From the NCBI GenBank assembly GCA_934098515.1, contig CAKOOK010000003.1, positions 5,070 to 69,069 on the forward strand: DNA of 64,000 nt, written 5' to 3'. The DNA comes from an uncultured Bacilli bacterium (lineage in GTDB: Bacteria; Bacillota_I; Bacilli_A; RF39; UBA660). The notes under the pieces were generated by a model. The model saw only the letters and a program-made list of their open reading frames with translations. It was not told the DNA's origin and ran no database searches. This document shows, piece after piece, positions 836-56,190 of this stretch. Both the position numbers and the translations under genes were made by a program. Position 1 is the first letter of the stretch, and each line of letters starts with the position of its first letter.

Positions 836-2557
836 CTACTTTACAATAAATGGATTTGCTTTAGTTCCATCTCCACCAATAATCTTAGCACTCTTAAGTT
901 GTAATGTTGGTCTTACTTTATTAGTATCAGTAACAACATTAGCTGTACCATCACCACCACCATATGATTTATATGATCCACCAGTAGAAACTGCATAACT
1001 ACTAGTATTAACATAATTATTATAAACATGAGCTTCTGGAGTACCATGGTTAAAGTTTGAAGTATCCATATTAAATCCAGTAATTTCAATTAACCAGAAA
1101 TTCTTACCAGTATTACTATTATTAGTTAAATAACTTCTATAACAATTATTACCATTACAATTAGCAACTTTACTATAATCATTCTTACTCATAAGAGCAA
1201 CCTTAGTATTAAGTGATCCACCACCAAATACAGTACCAGAAATATATTGATTCTCTACATATCTAGGATTAACCGCACTATAGAAACTATTAACTATATT
1301 ATCCATAGTATAACTAAATGCACCATTCAAATTATATCCACCTAATCCTTGATAATAATATCTTCCACCATTACAGCATCCACTATACTTACAAGCACCA
1401 ATCTGTCCATAAACCAAATCAGTTCTATTATTATAACTATAAGGATCATTAGCAATTATCTTAATACTATTACCCTTCTTATGATAAATTCTAAACATAT
1501 AAGAATTATTATTAAACTTCAAATAATTACTTTCTACTTCACCCTTAAAATAGCACTCATCAGTCTTACCAGCCTCTGGTGTACAATCACCATTAATAAA
1601 ATCTATTAAATTATCACTAACTACATATTCTAAAGTAAATGGACTAGGAACAGAACCATCACTATTAGTCTTATTATAACTAATAATTGCTTTCTTACTG
1701 CCTACTGGTTCAGTAACAAAACCTTTCATTGTAAAATCTGTAATATTATCTACAGGACTAGTAAATTCTTTCTTAGTACCATTCTTATAAGTAACAATTA
1801 ATGTAACCTTAGTATCCTTAGCCCCAAGAACTATCTTATTACCATTCTTATTTAAATAAGCAGTAAAACTATCAACATCATTCTCACTAGCAGCAACATA
1901 CACATTTCTAGTTTTGCTAACACTCTTACCATTATAAGTATAAGTATAAACAACACTATAACTACCAGCCTTAGTAACATCAACATTACAACTAGTAACC
2001 TTAATACTATCTCCCTTAACTAAAGGATAAGTCTTACTAGCATCATTTAAATCAGTTAAAACCAACTTACCATACTTAGAATCACTACTATTTAAACCCT
2101 TAAACTCATTTTCTTCAGTACACCAATTACTACCACTAGCATCATAAGCTAAATAAATAGAATCAGCAACTAAATAAGTATTAGTCTCATCAGCAGGATT
2201 AAGTTCAAACTCTGTAGCTCCCGTACTACCATTTAATGTAACACGAACAACTTCTTCATCTTTATACTTTTCATTAGTTTCCTTATTAGTAATATCTTCA
2301 CTAAGTAAACCATTACTTTTTAAATCCCCTATAGTAATATCTACAAAATTATATCCTTCATATAACTTCTCGATCTCACTCTTATTAGCACTAACATAAG
2401 CATCTGCTGCACTAAGTATCTGCTTAACAGTATCTTTATTATTCTCTTTAGGATCATTCTTACCAACTAAATTAACAATAAAAATACCAACAATAACTGC
2501 AATAAGTGCTATAACTGCAATTATCTCTACAAGTGTAAATCCTTTCTTATTCTTCAT
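836..2557 (-). CDS. large pilin-like protein: prepilin (class III) signal plus a non-diversified copy of the C-terminal module shared with P1/P2/P3
   Basis: The N-terminus MKNKKG|FTLVEIIAVIALIAVIV has the G-1/F+1/E+5 prepilin-peptidase motif followed by a hydrophobic helix. The C-terminal NYLKFNNNSYMFRIY...NKVRPTLQLKSAKIIGGDGTKANPFIVK aligns with NYVQFANKCWRIVRV...VRPSISLKSTTNVTGDGTSSSPFIIN of the paralogs. A GGAGGA RBS precedes the ATG. Confidence 0.75.
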   Translation of the reverse strand: MKNKKGFTLVEIIAVIALIAVIVGIFIVNLVGKNDPKENNKDTVKQILSAADAYVSANKSEIEKLYEGYNFVDITIGDLKSNGLLSEDITNKETNEKYKDEEVVRVTLNGSTGATEFELNPADETNTYLVADSIYLAYDASGSNWCTEENEFKGLNSSDSKYGKLVLTDLNDASKTYPLVKGDSIKVTSCNVDVTKAGSYSVVYTYTYNGKSVSKTRNVYVAASENDVDSFTAYLNKNGNKIVLGAKDTKVTLIVTYKNGTKKEFTSPVDNITDFTMKGFVTEPVGSKKAIISYNKTNSDGSVPSPFTLEYVVSDNLIDFINGDCTPEAGKTDECYFKGEVESNYLKFNNNSYMFRIYHKKGNSIKIIANDPYSYNNRTDLVYGQIGACKYSGCCNGGRYYYQGLGGYNLNGAFSYTMDNIVNSFYSAVNPRYVENQYISGTVFGGGSLNTKVALMSKNDYSKVANCNGNNCYRSYLTNNSNTGKNFWLIEITGFNMDTSNFNHGTPEAHVYNNYVNTSSYAVSTGGSYKSYGGGDGTANVVTDTNKVRPTLQLKSAKIIGGDGTKANPFIVK

Positions 2558-3132: not shown

Positions 3133-3271
3133 AATCACCACCAATGTTCAAAACACGTACCAAAACCTCTACTATTATTATTTATCTCTCTCGCATGTCA
3201 GTTTGTCCCTCGAAGGTTTTCTCAAAGGCATCTGCGACTGACGATTTCGACCTTTTAATTTCTCGCCTTGT

Positions 3272-4855
3272 TTACATATTTATTATGAATGGTGAACTAC
3301 TAGTTCCATCACCAGTTACGTTGGTCGTCGACTTAAGAGAAATTGAAGGACGAACGCCGTAGGCGTTGCCCACGCCGCTGTTGTCGAAGTTGCCATAGAT
3401 GGCGAAAACGAACCAAACGTAAGCGTAGCGGCCAATGAAGTAGCTAGGAGACAAAGAACACCAATTATCACTTGTAGCATTTTCTTGTAAATATGTAGTA
3501 GTATTTCCTGTTCCTATAGCATATCCTGCATACGCTAATTCATCTGCTGTTATTAATCCTACCTTTGATGTTATTTTACTTAACTCTCCATTACATATTA
3601 AACTAGGACCAGTGCCTCCAGCACTATTACTTTTACTTGATAATCTTTGTGTGGTGCCATAATATGTCTTGTTTGTGCCATATCCAAGTCCTGTTGGAGT
3701 TCCTCCGGACAACGGATTATAAGTAGTATCCGTCACATTTGTTTTATCATTACACCATACAGTATCATCTATTACTTTTTCATAATCTTTAAGATTATTC
3801 TTATCATACCAAGCCTCTAAATTAGTTAGTATCGTACTTTTATTGGTATTTGCATGTGTAGCTTCATATGTACTAGAGCCTGGTGTTCCATACTTAAATC
3901 CTACATAAGCATTGTCATTATCGTTTGAATTAAATGCACTTGTATATGTAGTACCAGAGTATCTAGCAAATGCTGCATTATCATTATTATTTGCTGGATC
4001 ACAAGGATTAGCTGCTCCGGCAGTATTATCATTATGTAAAATAAGTTTTACTGAACCATCTCCACCAACTCTTACTATTCTCCAGCACTTATTAGCAAAC
4101 TGTACATAGTTATTTGTTACAGCTCCTCTAAAATAATAGCTTGTTCCATAATCATCTTCTGCACTTGCAAGTAATGCCTCACTAGCAGTAGATATTGCTG
4201 CTCCTGGTGTAGTTATTGGAGTCTTTACTTCATTTTTTGCTAGTATTGCTTCACTTAAAGTAGGAACATATTCTGCAGCAACTACACTAACAACTATCTT
4301 ACCTTTCCAAGTTTTATTTAAACCTTGTTCATTAGTTGTTTCTGAATCTAACCAAAGTCTTAAATCAAAAGATTTTGCTTCTTTATTTTTAAGTCCTGTA
4401 GTTTTTAGTACATATCCCTCTGTATTAGTATCTACTTCCCCTAAAGAAAGTGTACTCAAGATTACTGAACTGCCATCATTAGTCCCTTTAGTTGATAAAT
4501 TAGTTTTAACATAATTATCTTTTAAATAAGCAGTGTTAGTACTAGTTCTATATTCACTAACTAGTGCTATAGTTACTTTAACATAACTATCACAATTATT
4601 AGTTAATGTAAAAGTAAATGGTGATTGTTTAAGTCCATCTTCATCACTTATTGGAAAAGCATCAGATAATACTATTTCACTTGTTTCTTCTGTTAAAGTA
4701 GTATCTAAACAAGTTCTTGTACCAATAACATTACTATTAGTTTGAGTTTTAGTAATTCTATAATAAGCATAAGTTACTCCAATAAGTACTAATACAGTTA
4801 CAAGTAATCCATATAAAATTGTTCTTTTCTTCTTTTCTTTCTCTATAATATCCAT
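3272..4855 (-). CDS. surface protein P1: TasA/camelysin-like signal and beta-sandwich plus a C-terminal lectin-like module with a hypervariable patch
   Basis: Long ORF. The likely start is ATG at 4855 (MDIIEKEKKK...) after AGGTGAGG. The N-terminus ...LIGVTYAYYRITKTQTNSNVIGTRTCLD resembles SipW-type signals (GGTFAYFSD...N.F..GTLDL). SFDLRLWLDSETTNEQG resembles the TasA/camelysin fold. The C-terminal half is near-identical to 40097-41401 and 54197-56121 (EALLASAEDDYGTSYYFRGAVTNNYV.FANKCWRIVRVGGDGSVKLILHNDNT). Confidence 0.7.
   Translation of the reverse strand: MDIIEKEKKKRTILYGLLVTVLVLIGVTYAYYRITKTQTNSNVIGTRTCLDTTLTEETSEIVLSDAFPISDEDGLKQSPFTFTLTNNCDSYVKVTIALVSEYRTSTNTAYLKDNYVKTNLSTKGTNDGSSVILSTLSLGEVDTNTEGYVLKTTGLKNKEAKSFDLRLWLDSETTNEQGLNKTWKGKIVVSVVAAEYVPTLSEAILAKNEVKTPITTPGAAISTASEALLASAEDDYGTSYYFRGAVTNNYVQFANKCWRIVRVGGDGSVKLILHNDNTAGAANPCDPANNNDNAAFARYSGTTYTSAFNSNDNDNAYVGFKYGTPGSSTYEATHANTNKSTILTNLEAWYDKNNLKDYEKVIDDTVWCNDKTNVTDTTYNPLSGGTPTGLGYGTNKTYYGTTQRLSSKSNSAGGTGPSLICNGELSKITSKVGLITADELAYAGYAIGTGNTTTYLQENATSDNWCSLSPSYFIGRYAYVWFVFAIYGNFDNSGVGNAYGVRPSISLKSTTNVTGDGTSSSPFIINM
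3311..3445 (-). other. GC-rich, A-depleted hypervariable patch inside P1 (DGR variable-region-like)
   Basis: The coding strand reads TTC ATT GGC CGC TAC GCT TAC GTT TGG TTC GTT TTC GCC ATC TAT GGC AAC TTC GAC AAC AGC GGC GTG GGC AAC GCC TAC GGC GTT CGT CCT. These NNC codons are atypical for the window. Flanks are conserved with the paralogs. Confidence 0.6.
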
Positions 4856-4876
4856 TAGCCTCACCTACTATAAACA

Positions 4877-5198: not shown

Positions 5199-5215
5199 GT
5201 AGCAAACTTTGCTAC
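5193..5215 (-). terminator. rho-independent terminator of the AlbA_2-like gene (overlaps its stop codon)
   Basis: On the minus strand: GTAGCAAAGTTTGCTAC hairpin (5199-5215) followed by TTTTTT. Confidence 0.65.
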
Positions 5216-6882
5216 TTCACTTTCCAACATGAACCACCTAACTCAGCATCATTATAAATTTTGCCTTGCTTTTTTAAGATATTTAGTAAATATCTAACCC
5301 TATTAATTTTACCAATTTCATCTAATGAATTAGGTAACTTATCTTTAAGTAAAGAAATAATTTCTTTTCTACTTGCTGAACCATATTCTTTTATATATTT
5401 AATTATTAGTTCCATATAAAACTCATTTTCTAATCCAGAATTATAAACATACTCTTCTTTCTTTTCAGTTAAACTAGCAAGACTTGATGAAATATAAATA
5501 TTTGGATATCTTCCTTCAATTAAATTATCTTTTTTTAGATAATCACTTTGCTGTTTGCTTATCGGGTATCTCTTTTGTAATCTATCAAGTAATATTATTG
5601 CACTAATATCTAAGTTTGTTCTTTCAAACAACAATCTACTATAATTTTCATCAATTATTTTTCCATATAATGTTACAATAACACGATTAGGATTACTTAA
5701 ATCATAATCAGGCATTGGAAAATATTTTTTCTTTTGAATATCATATACTCGTTTAATTCCACTACCAACTGTATCTATCATATTCAAATTAACCATCGCA
5801 CTTATTAAAAATGGATTCCTATAATATGGAGAAGAATATCCATCTTTTAAAACATTCTCAATTGTTTCCGGAATAAAACTACCTTCATTTATGATCATCA
5901 ATCTATCTGAATATTCAATTATATTAATGTTTCCATGAAGTCTGTAATCTTGATGAGCAATACAATTATTAATTAACTCACGAAGAATATAATTATCATA
6001 CTTATCTACTTCATAAGGAAATAAAGTTGCATCACTAATCATGTATCTATACTTTAAATTTCTAATCTTAGATTTTATTTTATCAATATTAATAATAAAA
6101 GGTATTCCAAAATGTTCATAATCAATCACATTAAAATCATCATAAAGTTTCCACGTCATTCGTGGAATATATCCTTCCATCAAATAGTCATAATCACTAT
6201 TTCCTAAAAGCAACATACAAGCCATAGTTATCTTATTATTAATTGTTAATCTCGCTTTATTTAAAAATTGAGTATCAGTCAAATTATCAACTTCATCTAT
6301 TAAATTATCATCTTTATGTTTAACTTTAAATTGTTCTCTAGCAACTTTAATCGCATCTTTATCAAGATTATCTATTGTAGCTTCTTCAAGAACTTGTCTT
6401 GACCAATCATAATTTATAGTAGTTTTAATTTGTTCAATCTTATTTAGTGATAAAGGAGATAATGACTCGCCTATTCTTCCATAAGGAAAGCCTTTCCAAT
6501 TAATTGGTGTTCCAGAGGCGGCTGGTACTTGAAACATTATCACTCTTTTACCATTAACAACTATCGTATAAATTTCAATAAAACTTATATTATCCGTAGT
6601 ATTGTCAGAAATTTGTTTTTTCACCTTATTAAAATCATTATCTATGCAATAATTAGTACTAGTTAACTCATGTGTTTTATCATCAACACCAAATATTATC
6701 CAAGAATAAAGTTTGTTTTTTAAATTAGCTTCATTACCTAAAGCCGAGAAATATTTTCCTAAGGTATCAACATCAAAATTATTTTTAGCTCTTTTAAACT
6801 CAACACATTCATTTTCAGAAACTTTTAATAGATTACTTAATATTACAAGTAGCTCCTCAGTTGTCTTATACAAACTTATCAC
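5212..6882 (-). CDS. AlbA_2 (Schlafen-type) domain plus HATPase_c_4-like putative DNA-binding/regulatory protein ('RecG-like' annotation class)
   Basis: The N-terminus ...VSENECVEFKRAKNNF... matches the E.EFK AlbA_2 motif. LRELINNCIAHQDY matches the RE...NA..HRDY motif of the associated ATPase-like domain. The C-terminal part looks wHTH-like. The start (GTG at 6882 or TTG 9 nt downstream) is uncertain. Confidence 0.55.
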   Translation of the reverse strand: MISLYKTTEELLVILSNLLKVSENECVEFKRAKNNFDVDTLGKYFSALGNEANLKNKLYSWIIFGVDDKTHELTSTNYCIDNDFNKVKKQISDNTTDNISFIEIYTIVVNGKRVIMFQVPAASGTPINWKGFPYGRIGESLSPLSLNKIEQIKTTINYDWSRQVLEEATIDNLDKDAIKVAREQFKVKHKDDNLIDEVDNLTDTQFLNKARLTINNKITMACMLLLGNSDYDYLMEGYIPRMTWKLYDDFNVIDYEHFGIPFIINIDKIKSKIRNLKYRYMISDATLFPYEVDKYDNYILRELINNCIAHQDYRLHGNINIIEYSDRLMIINEGSFIPETIENVLKDGYSSPYYRNPFLISAMVNLNMIDTVGSGIKRVYDIQKKKYFPMPDYDLSNPNRVIVTLYGKIIDENYSRLLFERTNLDISAIILLDRLQKRYPISKQQSDYLKKDNLIEGRYPNIYISSSLASLTEKKEEYVYNSGLENEFYMELIIKYIKEYGSASRKEIISLLKDKLPNSLDEIGKINRVRYLLNILKKQGKIYNDAELGGSCWKVK

Positions 6883-6996: not shown

Positions 6997-9900
6997 CTAA
7001 CTCTGAGTTCCATCATTTGTTTCTACTGTTATATCATAATCTGTATCATAATAATAATTACTAAATAAGACACTTGAATTATTAATTACTTTTCTTATAC
7101 CTAACTCTCCTCTACCATATATAGCATTTCTTTCAATAGATTTAACACTATAAGTTAAAGTTACCGTCTTAAGTATAATATTATTCATTAAAGCATAACT
7201 ACTAATATTTTCTGCATCTATTACATATTCTAACTTCTCATAATAACTAGGAACACTTATTAAAGTCGTACCATCCTTATTAAACAAAACTCCATCTTTA
7301 CTACTATAATTATTATTATCAGCACTAACTATAAATTTATTTATATTTAAGTTTATTCTAGACTCTATACTAGTAACTGAGCTTGGTACGCTAATATTCA
7401 TCTTCTTATCATCAGCACTTACTAATCCATTTAATGCATCATATATAATTCTCGTAGTCCCTTCTCTAATCAGTACATCACCTTCAAGTTTATCTGGCAC
7501 TAAAATAAGAACTTCACCATTATATAATATATTATTTTCTACTTCTAAAGTACTTGCTTTTATTTCTTTAAAGTTAACACCTCTAAATGGTGCTATACCT
7601 ACATAAGCATTTCCTATATCAGCACTTTCTCCTTTAAAGTTATAAAATGCATAATCTCCAATAGTTTGAACACTTCTAGGAATAACAATATTACCTAAAT
7701 TACTATCTATAAAAGCATAGTCTTTAATATACTGTAGTCCTTCATTAAATGTTACATTACTTAAACTAGTATTTGTACTAAAAGCATACTGTTCAATAGT
7801 TCTAACTGCACTTCCTATAGTAACACTTGCTAAATCTAAATTATTAGCAAATGCTCTCTTACCAATCGTTTCACTATTAACATTAAGCATCTTTAAACTA
7901 GTACTTTCAAAAGCCGATGTTCCAATAGATTTAACACTTGATGGAATATTAATATTAGTAATACCAGTTCCATAAAATGCATTATTACCAATACTACTAA
8001 CATTATTCCCAATAACAATATTATTAATTTGGCTCGCATAATTATCCCAAGGAGCACTTGTAAAATCTTCCATCTCTCCACTACCATACACACTTAATGT
8101 ATAGCCATTACTTCCGTCTATATCTTTATTATCATACAAGAATGCTATTACATCTTCTTTATTATTCTTACCTATCTTATAATAATCTACATATTCATAT
8201 TCAGCACTAACTATCTCACTAGAAATAACTCTTTTATTAACTAAACCATAAGTATCACTTATAGCTCCTTCACTTAAAGTTAGACTAAATGGTCCATAAT
8301 AATTATTTGCTTTTAATACAATCTCAAATCTATAACCATTACTTATATCAGCTACCTTTTTAACACTATCTACAACTACTCCACTACCAGTACTAATCAT
8401 TCCCTTATTAATAGAATCACTATCTAGTCCTCCACCAATATCAGTACAATTTAAATATGCCTTACCAGTTTTATATATATCTCTTGGTACATCTGTAAAT
8501 AAACAACTAGGTACTGGATTATCTGCTATTGCATAGTAAGTTGTCCCTTTATTTCTATTATTAATAGTAATCTTACTTCCAATACTTTTAATATTATCAC
8601 CACTAGGACTTGTACTCCAACCTTTTTTCGTTATACCATCAGGAACATCAAAATCAGGTAAAGTAACTGAGCACCCAAACCCTAGTACACTCTCTGTACA
8701 AGTAAGCGTTGTCTCATTTAAACTTCCATAAGTTCCCCCATTTAAATTAATCTGAAATACATTAGTAACATAAATAGGTATTCTAAGTTCTCCGCAATCT
8801 GCACCTTTAATAACTAAATAAGTAGTTCCAGTTCTGTATGATCTTATCTTTATCTTATCAGTAAACACCTTATTAATATTATCAGGCTCATATGAGAAAT
8901 TACTTCTTGATACTACATTAACACTAGCAGTCCAGCTATTACTAACACTATAACTTAATTTACCAGTAGCAGCATAACTAATCGTAATCTCTGCACTTTC
9001 CTTATTAACGCCTAAAGTAATTGAGTTAACATTACTCTTTAAAGAATAAACATTATAATCTAATTCAGCAAGTCTATTACCATTATTTTCCCTTAAAAAG
9101 ATTATTGCTTTTCCTGTATTAGTTCTACCTAACTTATAAGGTAAATTAATATTATACTGTTCACTAGTAACATTATGTCTTATAAGTGTTACTCCACCAT
9201 ACTTACCACCATTACTAGCACAATTATTAGTTAAATTAATTGCTGGCTGATTAGGATTACTACCTAAATCTACTAAATAATAATCACTCATACTATCAAA
9301 TACTATATTATTCTTCTTGCTATCACAAACTCTTCCACTAGCATCTAACACCCCTAAATTAATACCATGAATTGTTATTGTATTATTACTAAGACCAGAT
9401 TCTACATCCTTACATATCTTAGTAACCGTCTCATTATTCTCTTTAAAATATAAACTAGTCTTATAAATAACTGGAATATATATATCTAAAGAACCATCTT
9501 TCTCACTTCTAACATTAACCTTAAAATCTTCTACATTATCATAAATATCTTCACCACTAGTAGTTTCTAAAATAACAGTATCATTTTCCATATGACAATT
9601 TAAATAATCAGTATTTTCTACATATCCACCATAAGTACTTTTCTTATAAACAGTACAAGTAAAATCATTACTAGAGCTTCCATTTATCTTAGACTTAAAC
9701 TGTGTCTTATCATTATTTTGTCTTCTTCCCCCATTAAAATATAAATACTCTGGCACCTCTGTATTATCAAGTTTAATATTAGAAACATTAACATCAAAAC
9801 TAGTCTCACCACATAAAGAACCTTTAATTGTAACTTTAACACTTCCAATACCATTACCTTTTATATAAAAGTAATTCTGATTATTTAAAGTTATTGTACT

Positions 9901-11034
9901 TCCAAAAGAACTATTATTTGCAGATATACTAGCAGCACTACTATCAACTGATACAGTTAAACTTCCAGTACCACCTGCATTAAGATTAATCTTTTTAGCA
10001 GCCTCACCAACTATAACATTTGTAATATGTGTTGTAACACTTAAATCATAAACTTGTCTAATAATAGTCTTACTAATACCTGCATGATTCTCTGTTATAT
10101 TAAAACTCTTTTCCCCAGTGCTAGTACCACTACTCATATATAGAACGTCTCCCTTTATAGTAGCATTTAAATCATCACTAATCCCACTAAGAGAAAACTC
10201 TCCATAATTCCTTCCCGTAATTCTAAAAAGATCATTAGTCAGTGTCTTCATACACATCTTAGGTGTATACCCATCAATATCATAATTAACAACATACACC
10301 CCTAAATTCATATGTCTATAAAGTTTCTTCTCCTTACTATCTTCATAATAAGTACCAATAACTCTAACTTGATAATTACCATCAGTACCACTTCCAGACT
10401 TATCATTTAAAGTAAGTATTAAATCATCACCATCAACCTTACAAGTAAAAGGACCAGTTACTTCACAAGTAATACTTTTAAAAGTACCCTTAGTATAAAT
10501 CTTAGTCTTATACTCCTCATGCGTTCCCCAATAAAAATCTTTCTTCGTCGCATTTAAATTAAGTGAATAATTACCACTCTCACTAACTGCTGGGCATGAA
10601 TAATAATCAGCATTAACATCATATAAAGTAGCACTAACTGTTATAGTATGTGGATCATAACAAAGAAGCACTTTACCATCAAGCCTTCCCCCACTAACCG
10701 GATTACCAATAAAACTAGCATCCCCCTTAGTAGTATCATACTCTAAATAACCATACCTAACTAAATCATCAACACTAACAATACAATCATCATAAGCATC
10801 CTTATTAATAGCCCCAGACTCAAGTGCATTAGTACACTTCTGATAAGTATTAATATTATCCTCACCATACTTAGAAGCACTAGTTTCAATAGTACTAATC
10901 TTAGAATTTAAAATACTCTCCTTAGTATTCTTAGATATATTAGTAACCGCTGGTATCAAAATAACCATAATAATTGAAAGAATTGTAATAACCGCAAGAA
11001 GTTCTACCATTGTAAAACCTTTATGGTCCCTCAT
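6997..11034 (-). CDS. giant (1345 aa) pilin-like adhesin: prepilin signal, repeated Ig-like regions, C-terminal BspA-type leucine-rich repeats
   Basis: MRDHKG|FTMVELLAVITILSIIMV is a canonical class III signal with E+5. The C-terminal ~380 aa hold repeated ...IGNNAFYGTGITNINIPSSVKSIGTSAFESTSLKMLNV...IGKRAFANNLDLASVTIGSAVRTIEQYAF... units, which are LRR_5/BspA-like. Confidence 0.75.
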   Translation of the reverse strand: MRDHKGFTMVELLAVITILSIIMVILIPAVTNISKNTKESILNSKISTIETSASKYGEDNINTYQKCTNALESGAINKDAYDDCIVSVDDLVRYGYLEYDTTKGDASFIGNPVSGGRLDGKVLLCYDPHTITVSATLYDVNADYYSCPAVSESGNYSLNLNATKKDFYWGTHEEYKTKIYTKGTFKSITCEVTGPFTCKVDGDDLILTLNDKSGSGTDGNYQVRVIGTYYEDSKEKKLYRHMNLGVYVVNYDIDGYTPKMCMKTLTNDLFRITGRNYGEFSLSGISDDLNATIKGDVLYMSSGTSTGEKSFNITENHAGISKTIIRQVYDLSVTTHITNVIVGEAAKKINLNAGGTGSLTVSVDSSAASISANNSSFGSTITLNNQNYFYIKGNGIGSVKVTIKGSLCGETSFDVNVSNIKLDNTEVPEYLYFNGGRRQNNDKTQFKSKINGSSSNDFTCTVYKKSTYGGYVENTDYLNCHMENDTVILETTSGEDIYDNVEDFKVNVRSEKDGSLDIYIPVIYKTSLYFKENNETVTKICKDVESGLSNNTITIHGINLGVLDASGRVCDSKKNNIVFDSMSDYYLVDLGSNPNQPAINLTNNCASNGGKYGGVTLIRHNVTSEQYNINLPYKLGRTNTGKAIIFLRENNGNRLAELDYNVYSLKSNVNSITLGVNKESAEITISYAATGKLSYSVSNSWTASVNVVSRSNFSYEPDNINKVFTDKIKIRSYRTGTTYLVIKGADCGELRIPIYVTNVFQINLNGGTYGSLNETTLTCTESVLGFGCSVTLPDFDVPDGITKKGWSTSPSGDNIKSIGSKITINNRNKGTTYYAIADNPVPSCLFTDVPRDIYKTGKAYLNCTDIGGGLDSDSINKGMISTGSGVVVDSVKKVADISNGYRFEIVLKANNYYGPFSLTLSEGAISDTYGLVNKRVISSEIVSAEYEYVDYYKIGKNNKEDVIAFLYDNKDIDGSNGYTLSVYGSGEMEDFTSAPWDNYASQINNIVIGNNVSSIGNNAFYGTGITNINIPSSVKSIGTSAFESTSLKMLNVNSETIGKRAFANNLDLASVTIGSAVRTIEQYAFSTNTSLSNVTFNEGLQYIKDYAFIDSNLGNIVIPRSVQTIGDYAFYNFKGESADIGNAYVGIAPFRGVNFKEIKASTLEVENNILYNGEVLILVPDKLEGDVLIREGTTRIIYDALNGLVSADDKKMNISVPSSVTSIESRINLNINKFIVSADNNNYSSKDGVLFNKDGTTLISVPSYYEKLEYVIDAENISSYALMNNIILKTVTLTYSVKSIERNAIYGRGELGIRKVINNSSVLFSNYYYDTDYDITVETNDGTQS

Positions 11035-11044
11035 AAACTCACCT

Positions 11045-11569
11045 CTATTCTACTATCTTAAAATAAATATTAGATGTAAAATCATTCCCATTAGATGCAA
11101 GCATTTTAACCCTTAACTCATTAAGCCCACTATTATTAAAAGAATTATACAGAACAAAATTTGCTTCATCTATAATTGCTCCCTCTGGAAGCTTTCGCAC
11201 AAAATTACGTGCCATCTCATCACTAGTTAAATTAGTATTAACATACTCATACTTAATATAACCAGCATCACTAGTTAAAGAAAGCCTCTTCATAATATGC
11301 TCACTTAAATTACTTTCTCTATAAGCATTAAAAGTAATAATTACGCTCTTATTACCATCTATCTCTATTTTATTAACCCCATATCTATTAATATCTGTAC
11401 TTACCGCATCAATCAAAAGTGTATTTAACACCTCAAAATCAACCTCTAACTTACTCTTTTTATATAAACCATTAACCGTAATTAATAACCTTGTAACAAA
11501 AATAAGAATAATAGATACCAGCACTATAGACACAATAATCTCAACAAGAGTCATTCCCTTCTTATTCAT
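11045..11569 (-). CDS. minor pilin-like protein (prepilin-type N-terminus)
   Basis: The likely start is ATG at 11569 (MNKKG|MTLVEIIVSIVLVSIILIF), which overlaps the upstream stop in an ATGAATAA arrangement. E+5 is present. Confidence 0.7.
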   Translation of the reverse strand: MNKKGMTLVEIIVSIVLVSIILIFVTRLLITVNGLYKKSKLEVDFEVLNTLLIDAVSTDINRYGVNKIEIDGNKSVIITFNAYRESNLSEHIMKRLSLTSDAGYIKYEYVNTNLTSDEMARNFVRKLPEGAIIDEANFVLYNSFNNSGLNELRVKMLASNGNDFTSNIYFKIVE

Positions 11570-12071
11570 CACTATCACCAAACCTTAATGAAGCATACTG
11601 ATAAATAGTCGGATTACTATTATAATTATTCTCATCTTCAAACATCACAATAATTCTATATCCACTATCACTAGTAGGATCTAACTTCTTTATATAATTC
11701 TGCGTAGTAGCTTCCAAACTAGATAAATCATTAACACTTAAATCACTAGTATCCCACTTAGTAATATATATAGAGTTTATATGCATATTACTAACCATTG
11801 CTTTAAAATAAGCATCACCCTTACCTAAACAATCACTAGATCCCTGACAATACATATATACATCAGCACCCTCATAACCACTAAAATTACTACTCTCTAA
11901 ATACTCTTTAACCAAATTAGTCTTATAAATATACTCTGTATTATCATAATAACTCTTTCTTTGCACTGCACTAATAACATTCATATAACCCCCATAAAGC
12001 ATAATTAACAATACACACAAAACAAGAATAACAACAATAGTCTCTACCAAAACAAAACCATTCTTCTTCAT
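11562..12071 (-). CDS. minor pilin-like protein (prepilin-type N-terminus)
   Basis: MKKNG|FVLVETIVVILVLCVLLIML has G-1, F+1 and E+5. Confidence 0.7.
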   Translation of the reverse strand: MKKNGFVLVETIVVILVLCVLLIMLYGGYMNVISAVQRKSYYDNTEYIYKTNLVKEYLESSNFSGYEGADVYMYCQGSSDCLGKGDAYFKAMVSNMHINSIYITKWDTSDLSVNDLSSLEATTQNYIKKLDPTSDSGYRIIVMFEDENNYNSNPTIYQYASLRFGDSDE

Positions 12072-40096: not shown

Positions 40097-41401
40097 CTAA
40101 TTTACAATATAAGGTTTTTCACTTGTACCATCACCGGTCACGTTGGTAGAGGGCTTAAGAGAAATCGAAGGACGGACATTACCCGCATCGCTCACGCTGT
40201 CGTGGCCGAAGTTTCCAGCCTTGCCACCAACGCGCCAAACGTGAGCACGACCAATGGGAGAAAATTCAACAGGTGACAGAGTCCACAGCCAACCGTCCGT
40301 AGCATTTTCTTGTAAATATGTTGTGCCATTATTTAATCCATAAGCATATCCTGCAAATACTACCTCATCCGCAGTTAATAAACCTATTTTTGATTTTATT
40401 TTACTTAATTTTCCATTACATTTTAAACTAGGACCCGTGCCTCCAGCACTACCACTTGAACTTACTAATCTTTGTGTAGCACCATAATATGTTTTATTTG
40501 TGCCATACCCTAATCCTGTTGGTTTTTTCCCATATGACCATGGATTATAACTTATATCAGTTATATTTGTTTTATCGGTGCACCATATATTGTCATCTAT
40601 CACGCTTTCATATACTTTTAAATTGTTATTATACCAATTTTCCAAGTTAGTTAGTATTGTACTTTTATTTGTATTTGCATGAGTTGCAGCATAATCATCT
40701 GCATCAACTGTACCGTACATAAATCCTACATAAGCATTATCATCTTTATTTTCATTAAATTTACTTGTATATGTTGCACCAGAGTATCTTGCAAATGCTG
40801 CACTAGCACTATTATTAGCTGAATTACAAGGATTAGCTACTTTTGTAGTATTATCATTATGTAAAATAAGTTTTACTGAACCATCTCCACCAACTCTTAC
40901 TATTCTCCAGCACTTATTAGCAAATTCTACATAATTATTTGTTACAGCTCCTCTAAAATAATAACTTGTTCCATAATCATCTTCTGCGGATGCAAGTAAT
41001 GCTTCCTCAGCAGTAGATACTGCTGCTCCCGGTGTAGTTATTGGAGTTTTAACTTCATTATATGCTAGTATAGTTTCTGAGAAAGCCGGAACTTTTGTTA
41101 TAAACGTTGCATTACACCTCACATTGCCAACACTTATATCATTAAAAGACACTACCCATTTTGTACCATTCCATATAGCCTTTGCATCTACATCTTGTTT
41201 TACTCCATTTCTAGTGCACTCTACAGTTGCTACATACTTATTTGTAGTTGGAAATGTAGTACTAGCTTTGCCATCAATAACAGCTGCCATAATAGGTCCA
41301 CTACTATCTTCTAGTAAATCTTTTTTATCACTCTTATTGTACATAAACATTCCAGAAATAATTATCGTGCATACAATAATTAAACTAATTATTTTCTTCA
41401 T
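40097..41401 (-). CDS. surface protein P2: N-terminal anchor plus a C-terminal lectin-like module with a hypervariable patch
   Basis: The C-terminal 330 aa are near-identical to P1 outside the patch, and long runs are identical at nucleotide level, e.g. GTTTTACTGAACCATCTCCACCAACTCTTACTATTCTCCAGCACTTATTAGCAAA. The N-terminus is a TM/signal, MKKIISLIIVCTIIISGMF. Confidence 0.75.
   Translation of the reverse strand: MKKIISLIIVCTIIISGMFMYNKSDKKDLLEDSSGPIMAAVIDGKASTTFPTTNKYVATVECTRNGVKQDVDAKAIWNGTKWVVSFNDISVGNVRCNATFITKVPAFSETILAYNEVKTPITTPGAAVSTAEEALLASAEDDYGTSYYFRGAVTNNYVEFANKCWRIVRVGGDGSVKLILHNDNTTKVANPCNSANNSASAAFARYSGATYTSKFNENKDDNAYVGFMYGTVDADDYAATHANTNKSTILTNLENWYNNNLKVYESVIDDNIWCTDKTNITDISYNPWSYGKKPTGLGYGTNKTYYGATQRLVSSSGSAGGTGPSLKCNGKLSKIKSKIGLLTADEVVFAGYAYGLNNGTTYLQENATDGWLWTLSPVEFSPIGRAHVWRVGGKAGNFGHDSVSDAGNVRPSISLKPSTNVTGDGTSEKPYIVN
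40127..40300 (-). other. GC-rich, A-depleted hypervariable patch inside P2 (DGR variable-region-like)
   Basis: The coding strand reads GAC GGT TGG CTG TGG ACT CTG TCA CCT ... GTT TGG CGC GTT GGT GGC AAG GCT GGA AAC TTC GGC CAC GAC AGC GTG AGC GAT GCG GGT AAT GTC CGT CCT TCG ATT TCT CTT AAG CCC TCT ACC AAC GTG ACC GGT GAT GGT. Confidence 0.6.
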
Positions 41402-54196: not shown

Positions 54197-56121
54197 TCAA
54201 ACCACTTTGTAAGGATTTTCACTTGTTCCTTCACCTGTTACTTTAATGGATGAAACCAAAGATATGCAGGGCGCAACATTCTGGCACCGACCATGTTGCT
54301 GCTCTGCAATTGGCCCTTTATCACGTTCCAAACGCGAGCATCGCTACCATCAAAGTCGTAAGGAGATAATGACCACCAACGATCACCAGCATTTTCTTGT
54401 AAATATGTCGTAGTATTTTGTAATCCTCCAGCATATCCCGAATATATAATTTCGTCTGCAGTTAATAATCCTATTTTATAAGTTAAGTTACCATTACCAT
54501 TTACAGTATCACTAACAGTAAATTTAGATAATTTTCCTCCATTATTATCATTAGGGCAAATTAAACTAGGACTTGCATATATTGTGGCATCTGATATGGC
54601 AGTACCACCATTAATTCTATTTTTTGATCCATATCCTGTTTGATTTTTAGCATATCCTAAACCTGTTCCATAAGTTGAACCACTTGAGTAAGTAGTAAAT
54701 GTACTTTTATCATTACACCATATTGTATCAGCAAGTTTACTTTCAAATGGTGCCAAATTATTTTTATACCATGTTTCTAAATTAGTTAGTATCGTACTCT
54801 TATTAGTATTTGCATGTGTGCTTGCATAATCACTTACACCAGTTGCTCCATACATAAATCCTATACCAGCATTATCATTATAAAATCCATTAAATACACT
54901 CTTATATGTTTTACCAGAGTATCTTGCAAATGCTGCACTAGTACTATTATTTGCTGAATCACAAGGATTAGCTGCACCAGTTGTATTATCATTATGAAGA
55001 ACAAGTTTTACTGAACCATCACCTACTATTCTTACTATTCTCCAGCACTTATTTGCAAACTCAACATAATTATTTTTAACCGCACCTCTGAAATAATAGC
55101 TGATTCCATAGTCATCTTCTGTAGATGCAAGTAAAGCTTCTGTTATATCTTTGTTTGAAGAAATTACCTTATAAGTAAAACTATCTTGTGCAGAGCTTAC
55201 GACATAATAAACTTCTCTTAAATTAGTTGTAGTCTTCATAGCTCCAGCAGTACTTGACCCAGCACTTAACAAAGTATTATATGGTAAATATTTACCAACT
55301 AAACTAGAATATGAATTTGCATATGTATCACTTGTTACAGCAGTTCCCGTTAGATTAAACTTTGTACCATTTGCTTCCCACCCAGTACCATAAGTTATAT
55401 AATATGCCTGAGCTTCAGTTTTTACGGGTATTGTTAGACCTTCAACATCATCTAAAACATGAGCACTAGCTTCTCTTCCAGGTACTGTTAGTGGAGTCTT
55501 AACTTCATTATTAGCTAATATTGCCTCTCTTAAATTCTTTGGTGGCTCCACTTCAGCACTTGCTCCAACAATAACTTTACCAAGATACTTTTTACTTGCT
55601 CCTTGTTCTTTTGTCATACTTTCGTCAAACCATAATCTTAAATCATATGTTTTAGATGAATTTGCTGATAAACTATCTGTTAGTAATTCATAAGCAGTAC
55701 CACCATTTTGTGCTTCCATAGTTTTACCACTAGATAAAATAGATGCACTTATTGGTATCTCTCCATTATTAACAATAACTCCTTTAATTAGGTTTGATGG
55801 TATTTCACTTGTACTTAGTGTCTCTACACCTATACTAAGCGTTAAATGCTGATTACAATTATTAGTTACTTTAAACGTATAAGGACTTCTTTCTAACCCC
55901 TCACTATCAGGTATAGGATAATCATTTGCTAAATTAATAGCATTATTAACACCTGTAAATGTTACACTAAAACAATTAGTTGCTCCTAAATTATTAGTTC
56001 CACTTTGTCTTGCAAAATTTTGGAATATAGCAAAACTAACTCCCATTACCAATAAAACAATTATTAATAAAGAACTAAACACCTTAATTTTATTCTTGTC
56101 TCTTGATATTTTATCTTCCAC
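54197..56121 (-). pseudogene. surface protein P3 (TasA-like N-domain plus lectin-like module), frameshifted 17 codons before the natural C-terminus
   Basis: The track ORF 54238..56175 ends ...RMLRPAYLWFHPLK*. Shifting one base at ~54264/54265 restores RPA-ISLVSSIKVTGEGTSENPYKVV* (stop TGA at 54197-54199), which matches RPSISLKSTTNVTGDGTSSSPFIIN of P1. The likely start is GTG 56121 after AGGTGA. A sequencing error cannot be excluded. Confidence 0.6.
54262..54352 (-). other. GC-rich hypervariable patch inside P3
   Basis: The coding strand reads GAT GGT AGC GAT GCT CGC GTT TGG AAC GTG ATA AAG GGC CAA TTG CAG AGC AGC AAC ATG GTC GGT GCC AGA ATG TTG CGC CCT GCA. It is two codons shorter than in P1/P2. 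Confidence 0.5.
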
Positions 56122-56190
56122 TATAATCACCTTATATTCTATAAAAATTATAAAATATAAAGACATAAAATTCAAGAAGAAATATAATAT

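Follow-up and report, generated by a model that had tools for sequence, protein, structure and literature searches.

We analyzed a stretch of 64,000 nucleotides from the genome of an uncultured Bacilli bacterium (assembly GCA_934098515.1, contig CAKOOK010000003.1, positions 5,070 to 69,069). This whole stretch is called the window below. Close to its low-coordinate end there is a gene, P1, with a short GC-rich and adenine-depleted patch near its 3' end. The evidence makes it very likely that window positions 3333-3463 are the variable region (VR) of a target of a diversity-generating retroelement (DGR), and that P1 is a remote target that a chromosomal DGR serves in trans. The P1 VR carries the composition signature of such a region, and a cassette with a template repeat (TR) and a reverse transcriptase (RT) exists in relatives. 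An ortholog of P1 differs from the TR of the same contig at template adenines only, and in nearly identical strains the VR alone is rewritten. The window strain presumably carries the cassette too, outside the window, and its VR may still be undergoing diversification. An apparent orphan hypervariable cassette is thus resolved as a standard remote DGR target, and therefore no new diversification mechanism is needed.

The main features of P1 are the following.

3272-4855, minus strand: P1, the proposed DGR target gene, 527 amino acids from the ATG at 4855 according to the list of open reading frames (ORFs); a GTG start at 4864 also opens the ORF.
3333-3463, minus strand: the stretch homologous to the TR, or VR in the broad sense, from TGGTGTTCTTTGTCTCCT to CTCTTAA, as aligned to TRs of relatives.
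3359-3445, minus strand: hypervariable core of about 18 codons (amino acids 471-499), where the TR has AAC, AAT, GAC, AGC or ACY.
3332-3358, minus strand: 3' boundary of the VR, a segment resembling an initiation of mutagenic homing (IMH) site; the VR reads GGCGTTCGTCCTTCAATTTCTCTTAAG and the TR GGCGTCCGTCCTTATTTTCTCTTAAAT in a direct comparison.

The probable variable region, and the template and cassette in relatives

A sequence-only reading of this DNA had described positions 3311-3445 as a GC-rich, adenine-depleted patch inside an AT-rich gene, and base counts bear this description out. On the coding (minus) strand the patch has 19.3% A and 51.9% G+C, and its 93-nt core (3347-3439) has 29.0% T, 15.1% A and 55.9% G+C. 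P1 outside the patch has 38.9% A and 31.6% G+C, and the entire window has 29.9% G+C. Ranked by G+C, the top three 135-nt peaks of the window are all 3' ends of paralogs, namely of P2 (40169-40303, 57.8%), P1 (3319-3453, 52.6%) and P3 (54256-54390, 51.1%); the fourth-ranked peak reaches 46.7%. The codon usage is also as that reading stated. Codons with C at the third position are rare in the remaining P1 (21 of 489) and make up 23 of the 39 codons in the patch. All three Asn codons of the patch are AAC, while AAT dominates elsewhere in the gene (38 AAT to 5 AAC). The flanks of the patch had been thought to be conserved with the paralogs at the nucleotide level. This is true of both flanks for P2 but only of the upstream flank for P3. 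The codons between the flanks do share little with P2 or P3, and no paralog VR matches the VR of the window.

A predicted template was written from four orthologous DNA sequences, and the resulting scan pattern was GCTAAYGTTTGGAAYGTTAAY. A scan of the genome collection gave two relevant matches: locus L011 from an uncultured Tenericutes metagenome-assembled genome (MAG) and locus L013 from a Hadza gut MAG labelled Clostridia. Both carry a copy of the VR that is rich in Asn codons (...CCTAACAACTTCAATGG...GCTAACGTTTGGAACGTTAACGGCAGC...AACTTCGACAACAACAACGTGAACAAC...GGCGTCCGTCCTTAT). This TR is about 117 nt long and has 49% G+C and 29% A, vs 14% A in the VR. Window positions 3463-3333 align to L011 360-489 with 78.6% identity. 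The homology between VR and TR extends beyond the last variable codon and then splits into CGTCCTTCAATTTCTCTTAAG in the VR and CGTCCTTATTTTCTCTTAAAT in the TR. Judging from this boundary, 3332-3358 is a candidate site for the initiation of mutagenic homing. The sequence pair TGGTGGTCYTTGTCKCCTAACAAC...GCTAACGTTTGGAACGTTAAC can be used for seeking the TR in the window strain.

In the relatives the order of the cassette is cis target, TR, MutS-like (MSL) ORF, Avd-like ORF and RT. The cis target is a P1-like gene directly upstream of the TR (in L013, L028, L035 and others); it has about 82% DNA identity to P1, and the similarity continues through the 3' untranslated region (UTR). About 250 nt of non-coding DNA separate the TR from the 120-aa MSL ORF, which matches MutS_I with 29.4 bits (cut-off 20.6). 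The next ORF, of 117 aa, is labelled Avd-like because of its position and of a weak similarity to bAvd (E = 0.003) and DivGenRetAVD (E = 6e-6), both under the curated cut-offs. The RT is encoded by a 356-aa ORF about 1 kb 3' of the TR; it matches RVT_1 (E = 6e-12) and has the motifs IGNMTSQ and YMDD. The pattern [LIV]GxxxSQ marks the RTs of DGRs. Among solved structures the best match of this RT is the 328-residue chain 8ub7_A (E = 1e-25), which is probably the Bordetella RT. A DGR-type RT and a template repeat of the length proposed by the sequence-only reading are thus present in the lineage, in relatives of the window strain.

Using a broadened pattern, we obtained 32 loci from the metagenome collection with two template types, TR1 and TR2. 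TR1 fits P1. TR2 has its own cis target and an RT that is 58% identical to the TR1-linked RT. The TR1-linked RT P0241 and its cassette lie between the genes of seryl-tRNA synthetase (SerRS) and PolC wherever the contig reaches that far among the ten places listed; nine of these places are separate samples. The DGR of TR2 type (L014 8471-11098 on the 1.2-Mb scaffold_1 of ERZ28637579; also L017, L020, L021 and L046) has MSL-like and Avd-like genes of its own. It occupies a different chromosomal context, adjoining RhuM-like and SpoIVA-like genes, and its cis target in L014 has 627 aa.

Matches of the TR pattern at L012 (SAR116), L018, L019, L022, L023, L032, L042, L043, L045 and L047 were discarded as occurring by chance. 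The pattern had no matches among the viral contigs of IMG/VR, and therefore there is no sign of a phage-borne DGR of this kind there. Rfam gave no family for the TR-containing DNA between the cis target and the MSL-like ORF. In three metagenome contigs (L025, L039 and L033) the 5' flank and initial half of the TR continue as the 3' half of a VR, followed by what lies downstream of a target gene; L039 2719-6068 aligns to window positions 54379-51017 with 94% identity. Either the assembly was chimerized across the TR/VR repeat in these contigs, or a real TR/VR recombination deleted the cassette. DGR cassettes and their targets are found on separate contigs because the TR/VR repeat breaks or chimerizes assemblies.

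One contig holds both a cassette and a remote target. It is contig_13135 of ERZ28759208 (1,145,030 bp), which carries RT P0241 and the P1 ortholog P0119.

About 41,287-41,399 of contig_13135: TR, between the SerRS and PolC genes.
42,470-43,444 of contig_13135: RT, between the SerRS and PolC genes.
1,057,602-1,059,179 of contig_13135: P1 ortholog, with the gene order of the window.

The shared gene order includes prepilin-type genes, a 1343-aa leucine-rich repeat protein, AlbA_2, P1, a 188-aa ORF and a 573-aa prepilin-type protein. The ortholog is 1.02 Mb away from the TR, or 127 kb if the molecule is circular. Its VR has 25 mismatches to the TR at template adenines and none at the 79-83 other sites (Fisher p = 7e-18 to 3e-18). 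The second near-complete scaffold (1.2 Mb) carries the DGR of TR2 type; its P1 ortholog, compared with TR1 from another genome, has 18 adenine mismatches and one other. For the cis targets the numbers of adenine and non-adenine mismatches are 23:0 to 24:1 in L014, 23:3 in L013 and 27:4 in L028. The prediction that mismatches fall only at template adenines stands for the ortholog on contig_13135 (25:0). Between the window VR and the TRs of other strains, mismatches are concentrated at adenines (18-19, against 6-8 at other bases; p about 1e-7). About half of these non-adenine mismatches coincide with known TR polymorphisms.

The variation among orthologs follows the same pattern. A protein search gave more than 7,000 homologs of P1, of which the best 120 are orthologs with 83-96% identity. 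In the alignment of these 120 orthologs the variation is concentrated in about 18 columns within residues 471-499, with an entropy of 2.4-3.4 bits vs a gene mean of 0.36. The residues in the variable columns (N, S, Y, D, G, F, I, R, H, L, V and C) are the set encoded by NNC, and the intervening columns (F, G, A, VW, V, G, F, V, GVRP) are nearly invariant. Such a pattern of columns would be expected if template AAC codons were randomized at positions 1 and 2. Among six orthologous VRs all 34 sites with adenine in the TR are polymorphic, vs 20 of 83 sites without it (p = 9e-16).

A further comparison is with L049, a locus from a Hadza sample. It differs from L001, a contig identical to the window over the 5 kb compared, at 81 positions in 19.9 kb. 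Of these, 38 are in P1, including 33 in the VR. The 33 substitutions lie within about 100 nt, and hardly any of the remaining 500-nt bins in the 19.9 kb contains a difference. The corresponding protein P0002 has 23 residue differences from P1, all in amino acids 460-501. Judging by this alignment, the VR of the window's own allele is rewritten in L049 on a nearly unchanged background. The expectation that variation between strains is confined to the patch, and there to codon positions 1-2 of codons templated by AAY, is thus supported by the entropy of the 120 orthologs, by the P0002/P1 pair and by the site counts in the six VRs.

Several further codons vary just upstream of the known TR homology. 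At codons 462-464 (window 3464-3472) and codon 466 (3458-3460), SDN..C, GTI..W and DTY..W are the readings of near-identical alleles. The three codons that vary all have the form NNT, and two of the variants are combined in the hybrid allele P0286. A longer TR in the window strain or recombination between alleles may account for these codons.

The mechanism, taken from established DGR biology, would act as follows. The TR would be transcribed, and the RT together with Avd would copy it into cDNA with random bases opposite template adenines. The cDNA would then replace the VR, anchored at the 3' boundary of the latter. In this way positions 1-2 of about 18 AAC, AAT, GAC or AGC codons would be randomized, and the non-adenine bases, including the third-position C, would be reset from the template. 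The GC richness of the patch would then be due to that of the TR. The halved adenine content, the NNC codons, the nucleotide-identical flanks and the unrelated codons of the paralogs would all result from the action of a DGR.

Points against a DGR acting in trans and other explanations

A number of results weigh against the proposed reading. The sequence-only reading had reported no RT, Avd-like gene or template in the 64 kb, and every search of the window agrees with it: tblastn gave nothing for the RT, Avd, MSL or Mbeg1-like proteins of the cognate family, a hidden Markov model (HMM) of 120 DGR RTs run against all six reading frames reached at most 5.6 bits, and neither blastn nor an adenine-tolerant scan detected a TR. 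There is also no RT, Avd, MSL gene or TR within about 5 kb past the low-coordinate end of the window, as seen in L001. The TR of the window strain itself was not recovered, and the adenine test for the window is not clean. Three of its mismatches (TGG>TGT, GGC>GCC and AGC>ATC) go beyond known TR polymorphism, though a strain-specific TR could explain them. The L049 VR similarly has three third-position changes, C>A or C>G, relative to the known TRs. The contigs with 99.98-100% DNA identity in the P1 region come from three samples, and all of them encode the same P1 protein. Five alleles (P0281-P0285) have the exact VR of the window yet 9-13 residue differences elsewhere. Since diverged alleles have the same VR, current activity is unproven, and diversification may be rare or switched off in the lineage of the window. 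Finally, an AlphaFold2 model of P1 based on 120 close orthologs was unusable (mean predicted local distance difference test score, pLDDT, 33.7), and a C-type-lectin fold was not confirmed by it.

The window is identical (100%) to contigs L001 and L002 across the 5 kb compared, and L003 has 99.98% identity. The RTs translated from the loci have no exact representative in the databases, and the cassette was not traced to the window samples ERZ27287019, ERZ27287144 and ERZ27287061.

The best surviving alternative is a fossil VR. According to this explanation a DGR wrote the patch in the past, the window strain then lost or silenced the cassette, and the sequence is frozen and drifting. The same VR in P0281-P0285, the uniformity of P1 in the three samples, the three non-adenine mismatches to all known TRs and the 64 kb without an RT would all agree with it, and P2 and P3 in the same window do look like fossils. 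On the other side, L049/P0002 is a complete rewrite of the VR on a near-identical background. The IMH-like boundary and the 3'-UTR element (see below) are intact in P1, as in the targets with adenine-only mismatches, and in relatives the cassette occupies a conserved spot of the core genome between SerRS and PolC. We regard a fossil VR as unlikely.

The sequence-only reading had kept cassette gene conversion or an undescribed diversifier in reserve. With the adenine-only pattern these are not needed. It had also allowed for a DGR acting in trans from elsewhere; in relatives a cassette and a remote ortholog on one contig, with the mismatch ratio 25:0, argue for exactly this. Gene conversion would mean that the patch is swapped with silent or paralogous copies (P2, P3, P4), as in antigenic variation. 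Several paralogs do have nucleotide-identical flanks, and allele P0286 is a hybrid with its 5' part from the window and its 3' part from P0002. However, no paralog VR matches the VR of either the window or L049, the third positions and the non-AAY codons are invariant, and conversion from donor cassettes cannot yield adenine-only differences on one contig. This makes gene conversion very improbable. Explanations that do without a dedicated mutator, namely ordinary diversifying selection or the horizontal acquisition of a GC-rich segment, have next to no probability: positive selection is common in surface-exposed proteins, of which P1 is probably one, and the GC content of the patch is foreign to the genome, but 33 substitutions are packed into about 100 nt of an otherwise almost uniform 19.9 kb, the variable codons show no synonymous third-position variation, and an Asn-codon-rich template copy adjoins an RT in relatives. 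Gene conversion, horizontal transfer and plain positive selection are all rejected because of the adenine-only pattern. A trans-acting chromosomal DGR remains the preferred explanation for the P1 VR.

Paralogs and the 3'-UTR element

Besides P1, two paralogs with VR-like patches and a conserved element downstream of P1 were located in the window.

40097-41401, minus strand: paralog P2, with a VR-like GC-rich patch at 40169-40303, the highest GC peak of the window.
54238-56175, minus strand: paralog P3, with a VR-like patch at 54256-54390, also a GC peak.
3153-3271, minus strand: conserved 3'-UTR element that begins right behind the stop codon of P1 and spans about 120 nt; blastn detects it once in the window.

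The P2 patch has 21-24 non-adenine mismatches to every TR recovered, and P2 is not followed by the 3'-UTR element; exactly the same P2 protein is encoded on at least 23 contigs. This patch is probably a decayed VR or is served by another template. The P3 patch has 18-32 non-adenine mismatches to the TRs. In the codon listing the frame of P3 appears to slip by 1 nt where the patch has its 3' edge (near 54262-54265), and a shift of frame restores the conserved tail of the family (..SLVSSIKVTGEGTSENPYKVV). P3 may be a pseudogene; otherwise the assembly is in error at this repeat-prone spot. Taken together, P2, P3, P4 and P5 have 7-33 non-adenine mismatches, and only P1 and the cis targets look like active targets. 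The clade therefore has two DGRs and at least five target paralogs in differing states of activity and decay.

The 3'-UTR element is also found after P1 orthologs and after the cis targets of both DGR types (for example, L054 8355-8475, L013 1233-1354 and L014 8653-8726), and it is absent after P2, P3, P4 and P5. The alignment of L013 with the window reaches position 3153, i.e., the end of the element. Its consensus fold is weak (-4.6 kcal/mol, with two pairs showing compensatory change), and it has no match in Rfam. In the Bordetella phage a hairpin stands immediately after the IMH, while the element described here lies about 60-90 nt beyond the VR/TR homology. One could speculate that it is a licensing signal that would mark which of the paralogous VR genes receive cDNA in trans, because the cis targets of two DGRs (with 58% identity between their RTs) share it and the decayed P2-P5 lack it. 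We consider this rather doubtful. If true, this could be the way in which a 1.15-Mb genome addresses a target located 127 kb to 1 Mb from the RT.

The P1 protein, known systems and neighboring genes

The 527-aa product of P1 with the ATG start is recorded on nine contigs; for the 530-aa product with the GTG start the protein look-up gave no exact record. The N-terminus of P1 is a hydrophobic membrane anchor, and its C-terminal domain is DUF6273-like. Its own match to DUF6273 (PF19789) is weak (14.2 bits, E = 0.039; gathering score 23.5). The threshold is passed by a cis-target paralog (25.8 bits) and by the unmutated version encoded by the TR (34.1 bits), and several P1 orthologs carry a precomputed PF19789 match. 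The TR-encoded version covers profile positions 108-172 of 172; the VR falls on the C-terminal end of this profile. A DUF1566-like target domain, as suggested by the sequence-only reading, does not hold: DUF1566 (PF07603) had no match up to E 10 in the last 150 residues of P1, P2, P4 and the cis targets, where only DUF6273 was found. DUF6273 is reported to be a C-type-lectin-like target domain of DGRs with the VR at its C-terminus (PMC10743442, PMC11792537). By analogy with that family (PMC10743442) P1 may have a C-type-lectin fold; a sequence search of PDB with P1 gave no meaningful match. P1 is probably a surface protein that binds ligands.

Wu et al. 2017 (PMC5758913) catalogued DGRs with several targets, with targets at distances above 100 kb and with MSL accessory genes (Architecture D); examples are a Legionella DGR with an MSL gene and a Treponema DGR with seven non-adjacent targets. 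The system described here resembles such MSL-type DGRs with remote targets. TR, MutS-like ORF, avd and RT lie on one strand beside a cis target, the cassette is chromosomal, and several paralogs serve as targets, including one that lies over 100 kb away from the RT and has adenine-only mismatches. It differs from those DGRs in the host, which belongs to an uncultured human-gut lineage with 30% GC and a genome of about 1.15-1.2 Mb (the records label it Bacilli, Tenericutes or Clostridia), and in the target domain, which is DUF6273-like rather than DUF1566 or FGE-sulfatase. Further differences are the two DGRs in one clade (TR1 and TR2) and the 3'-UTR element after every apparently active target.

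DUF6273 targets of gut phages, i.e., those of Faecalibacterium prophages (PMC11792537) and tentaclins (PMC10743442), belong to the same domain family and also have the VR at the C-terminal end of DUF6273. However, they are receptor-binding or decoration proteins of phages with a cis DGR, and P1 is chromosomal, membrane-anchored and served by a remote DGR. The prototype DGR of Bordetella phage BPP-1 (mtd, avd, TR, brt) shares the adenine-specific mutagenesis, the stop-avoiding AAC-rich codons of the template, the position of the VR at the 3' end of the target gene and a 3' boundary that is unlike between VR and TR. Unlike the present system, it is phage-borne, has a cis target only, lacks an MSL gene and acts on a protein of the Mtd family. 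In a gut-commensal DGR of another phylum the targets are also genetically linked to pilus genes. The pilus type is another one here, where the neighbors are type IV-like prepilin proteins, and P1 may be linked to a pilus, as its gene neighborhood suggests. Our literature search on DGRs in RF39 and on the PDB code 8UB7 found no paper. The present case documents DGR-driven diversification of a membrane-anchored DUF6273-like protein in a type IV-like prepilin cluster of an uncultured gut bacterium with a reduced genome.

The cluster in which P1 sits consists of prepilin-type (N_methyl) genes at window positions 836-2557, 6997-11034 and 11045-12071. Among its products are a 1345-aa protein bearing leucine-rich repeats of the BspA type and a protein of 573 aa that has Ig-like domains. 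This composition suggests a type IV-like pilus or pseudopilus that bears large adhesin-like subunits. Between the prepilin cluster and P1 lies an AlbA_2 / HATPase_c_4 gene (556 aa, window 5212-6882). It is missing at the orthologous locus of the 1.2-Mb scaffold (L004), which makes it a presence/absence polymorphism directly upstream of the DGR target.

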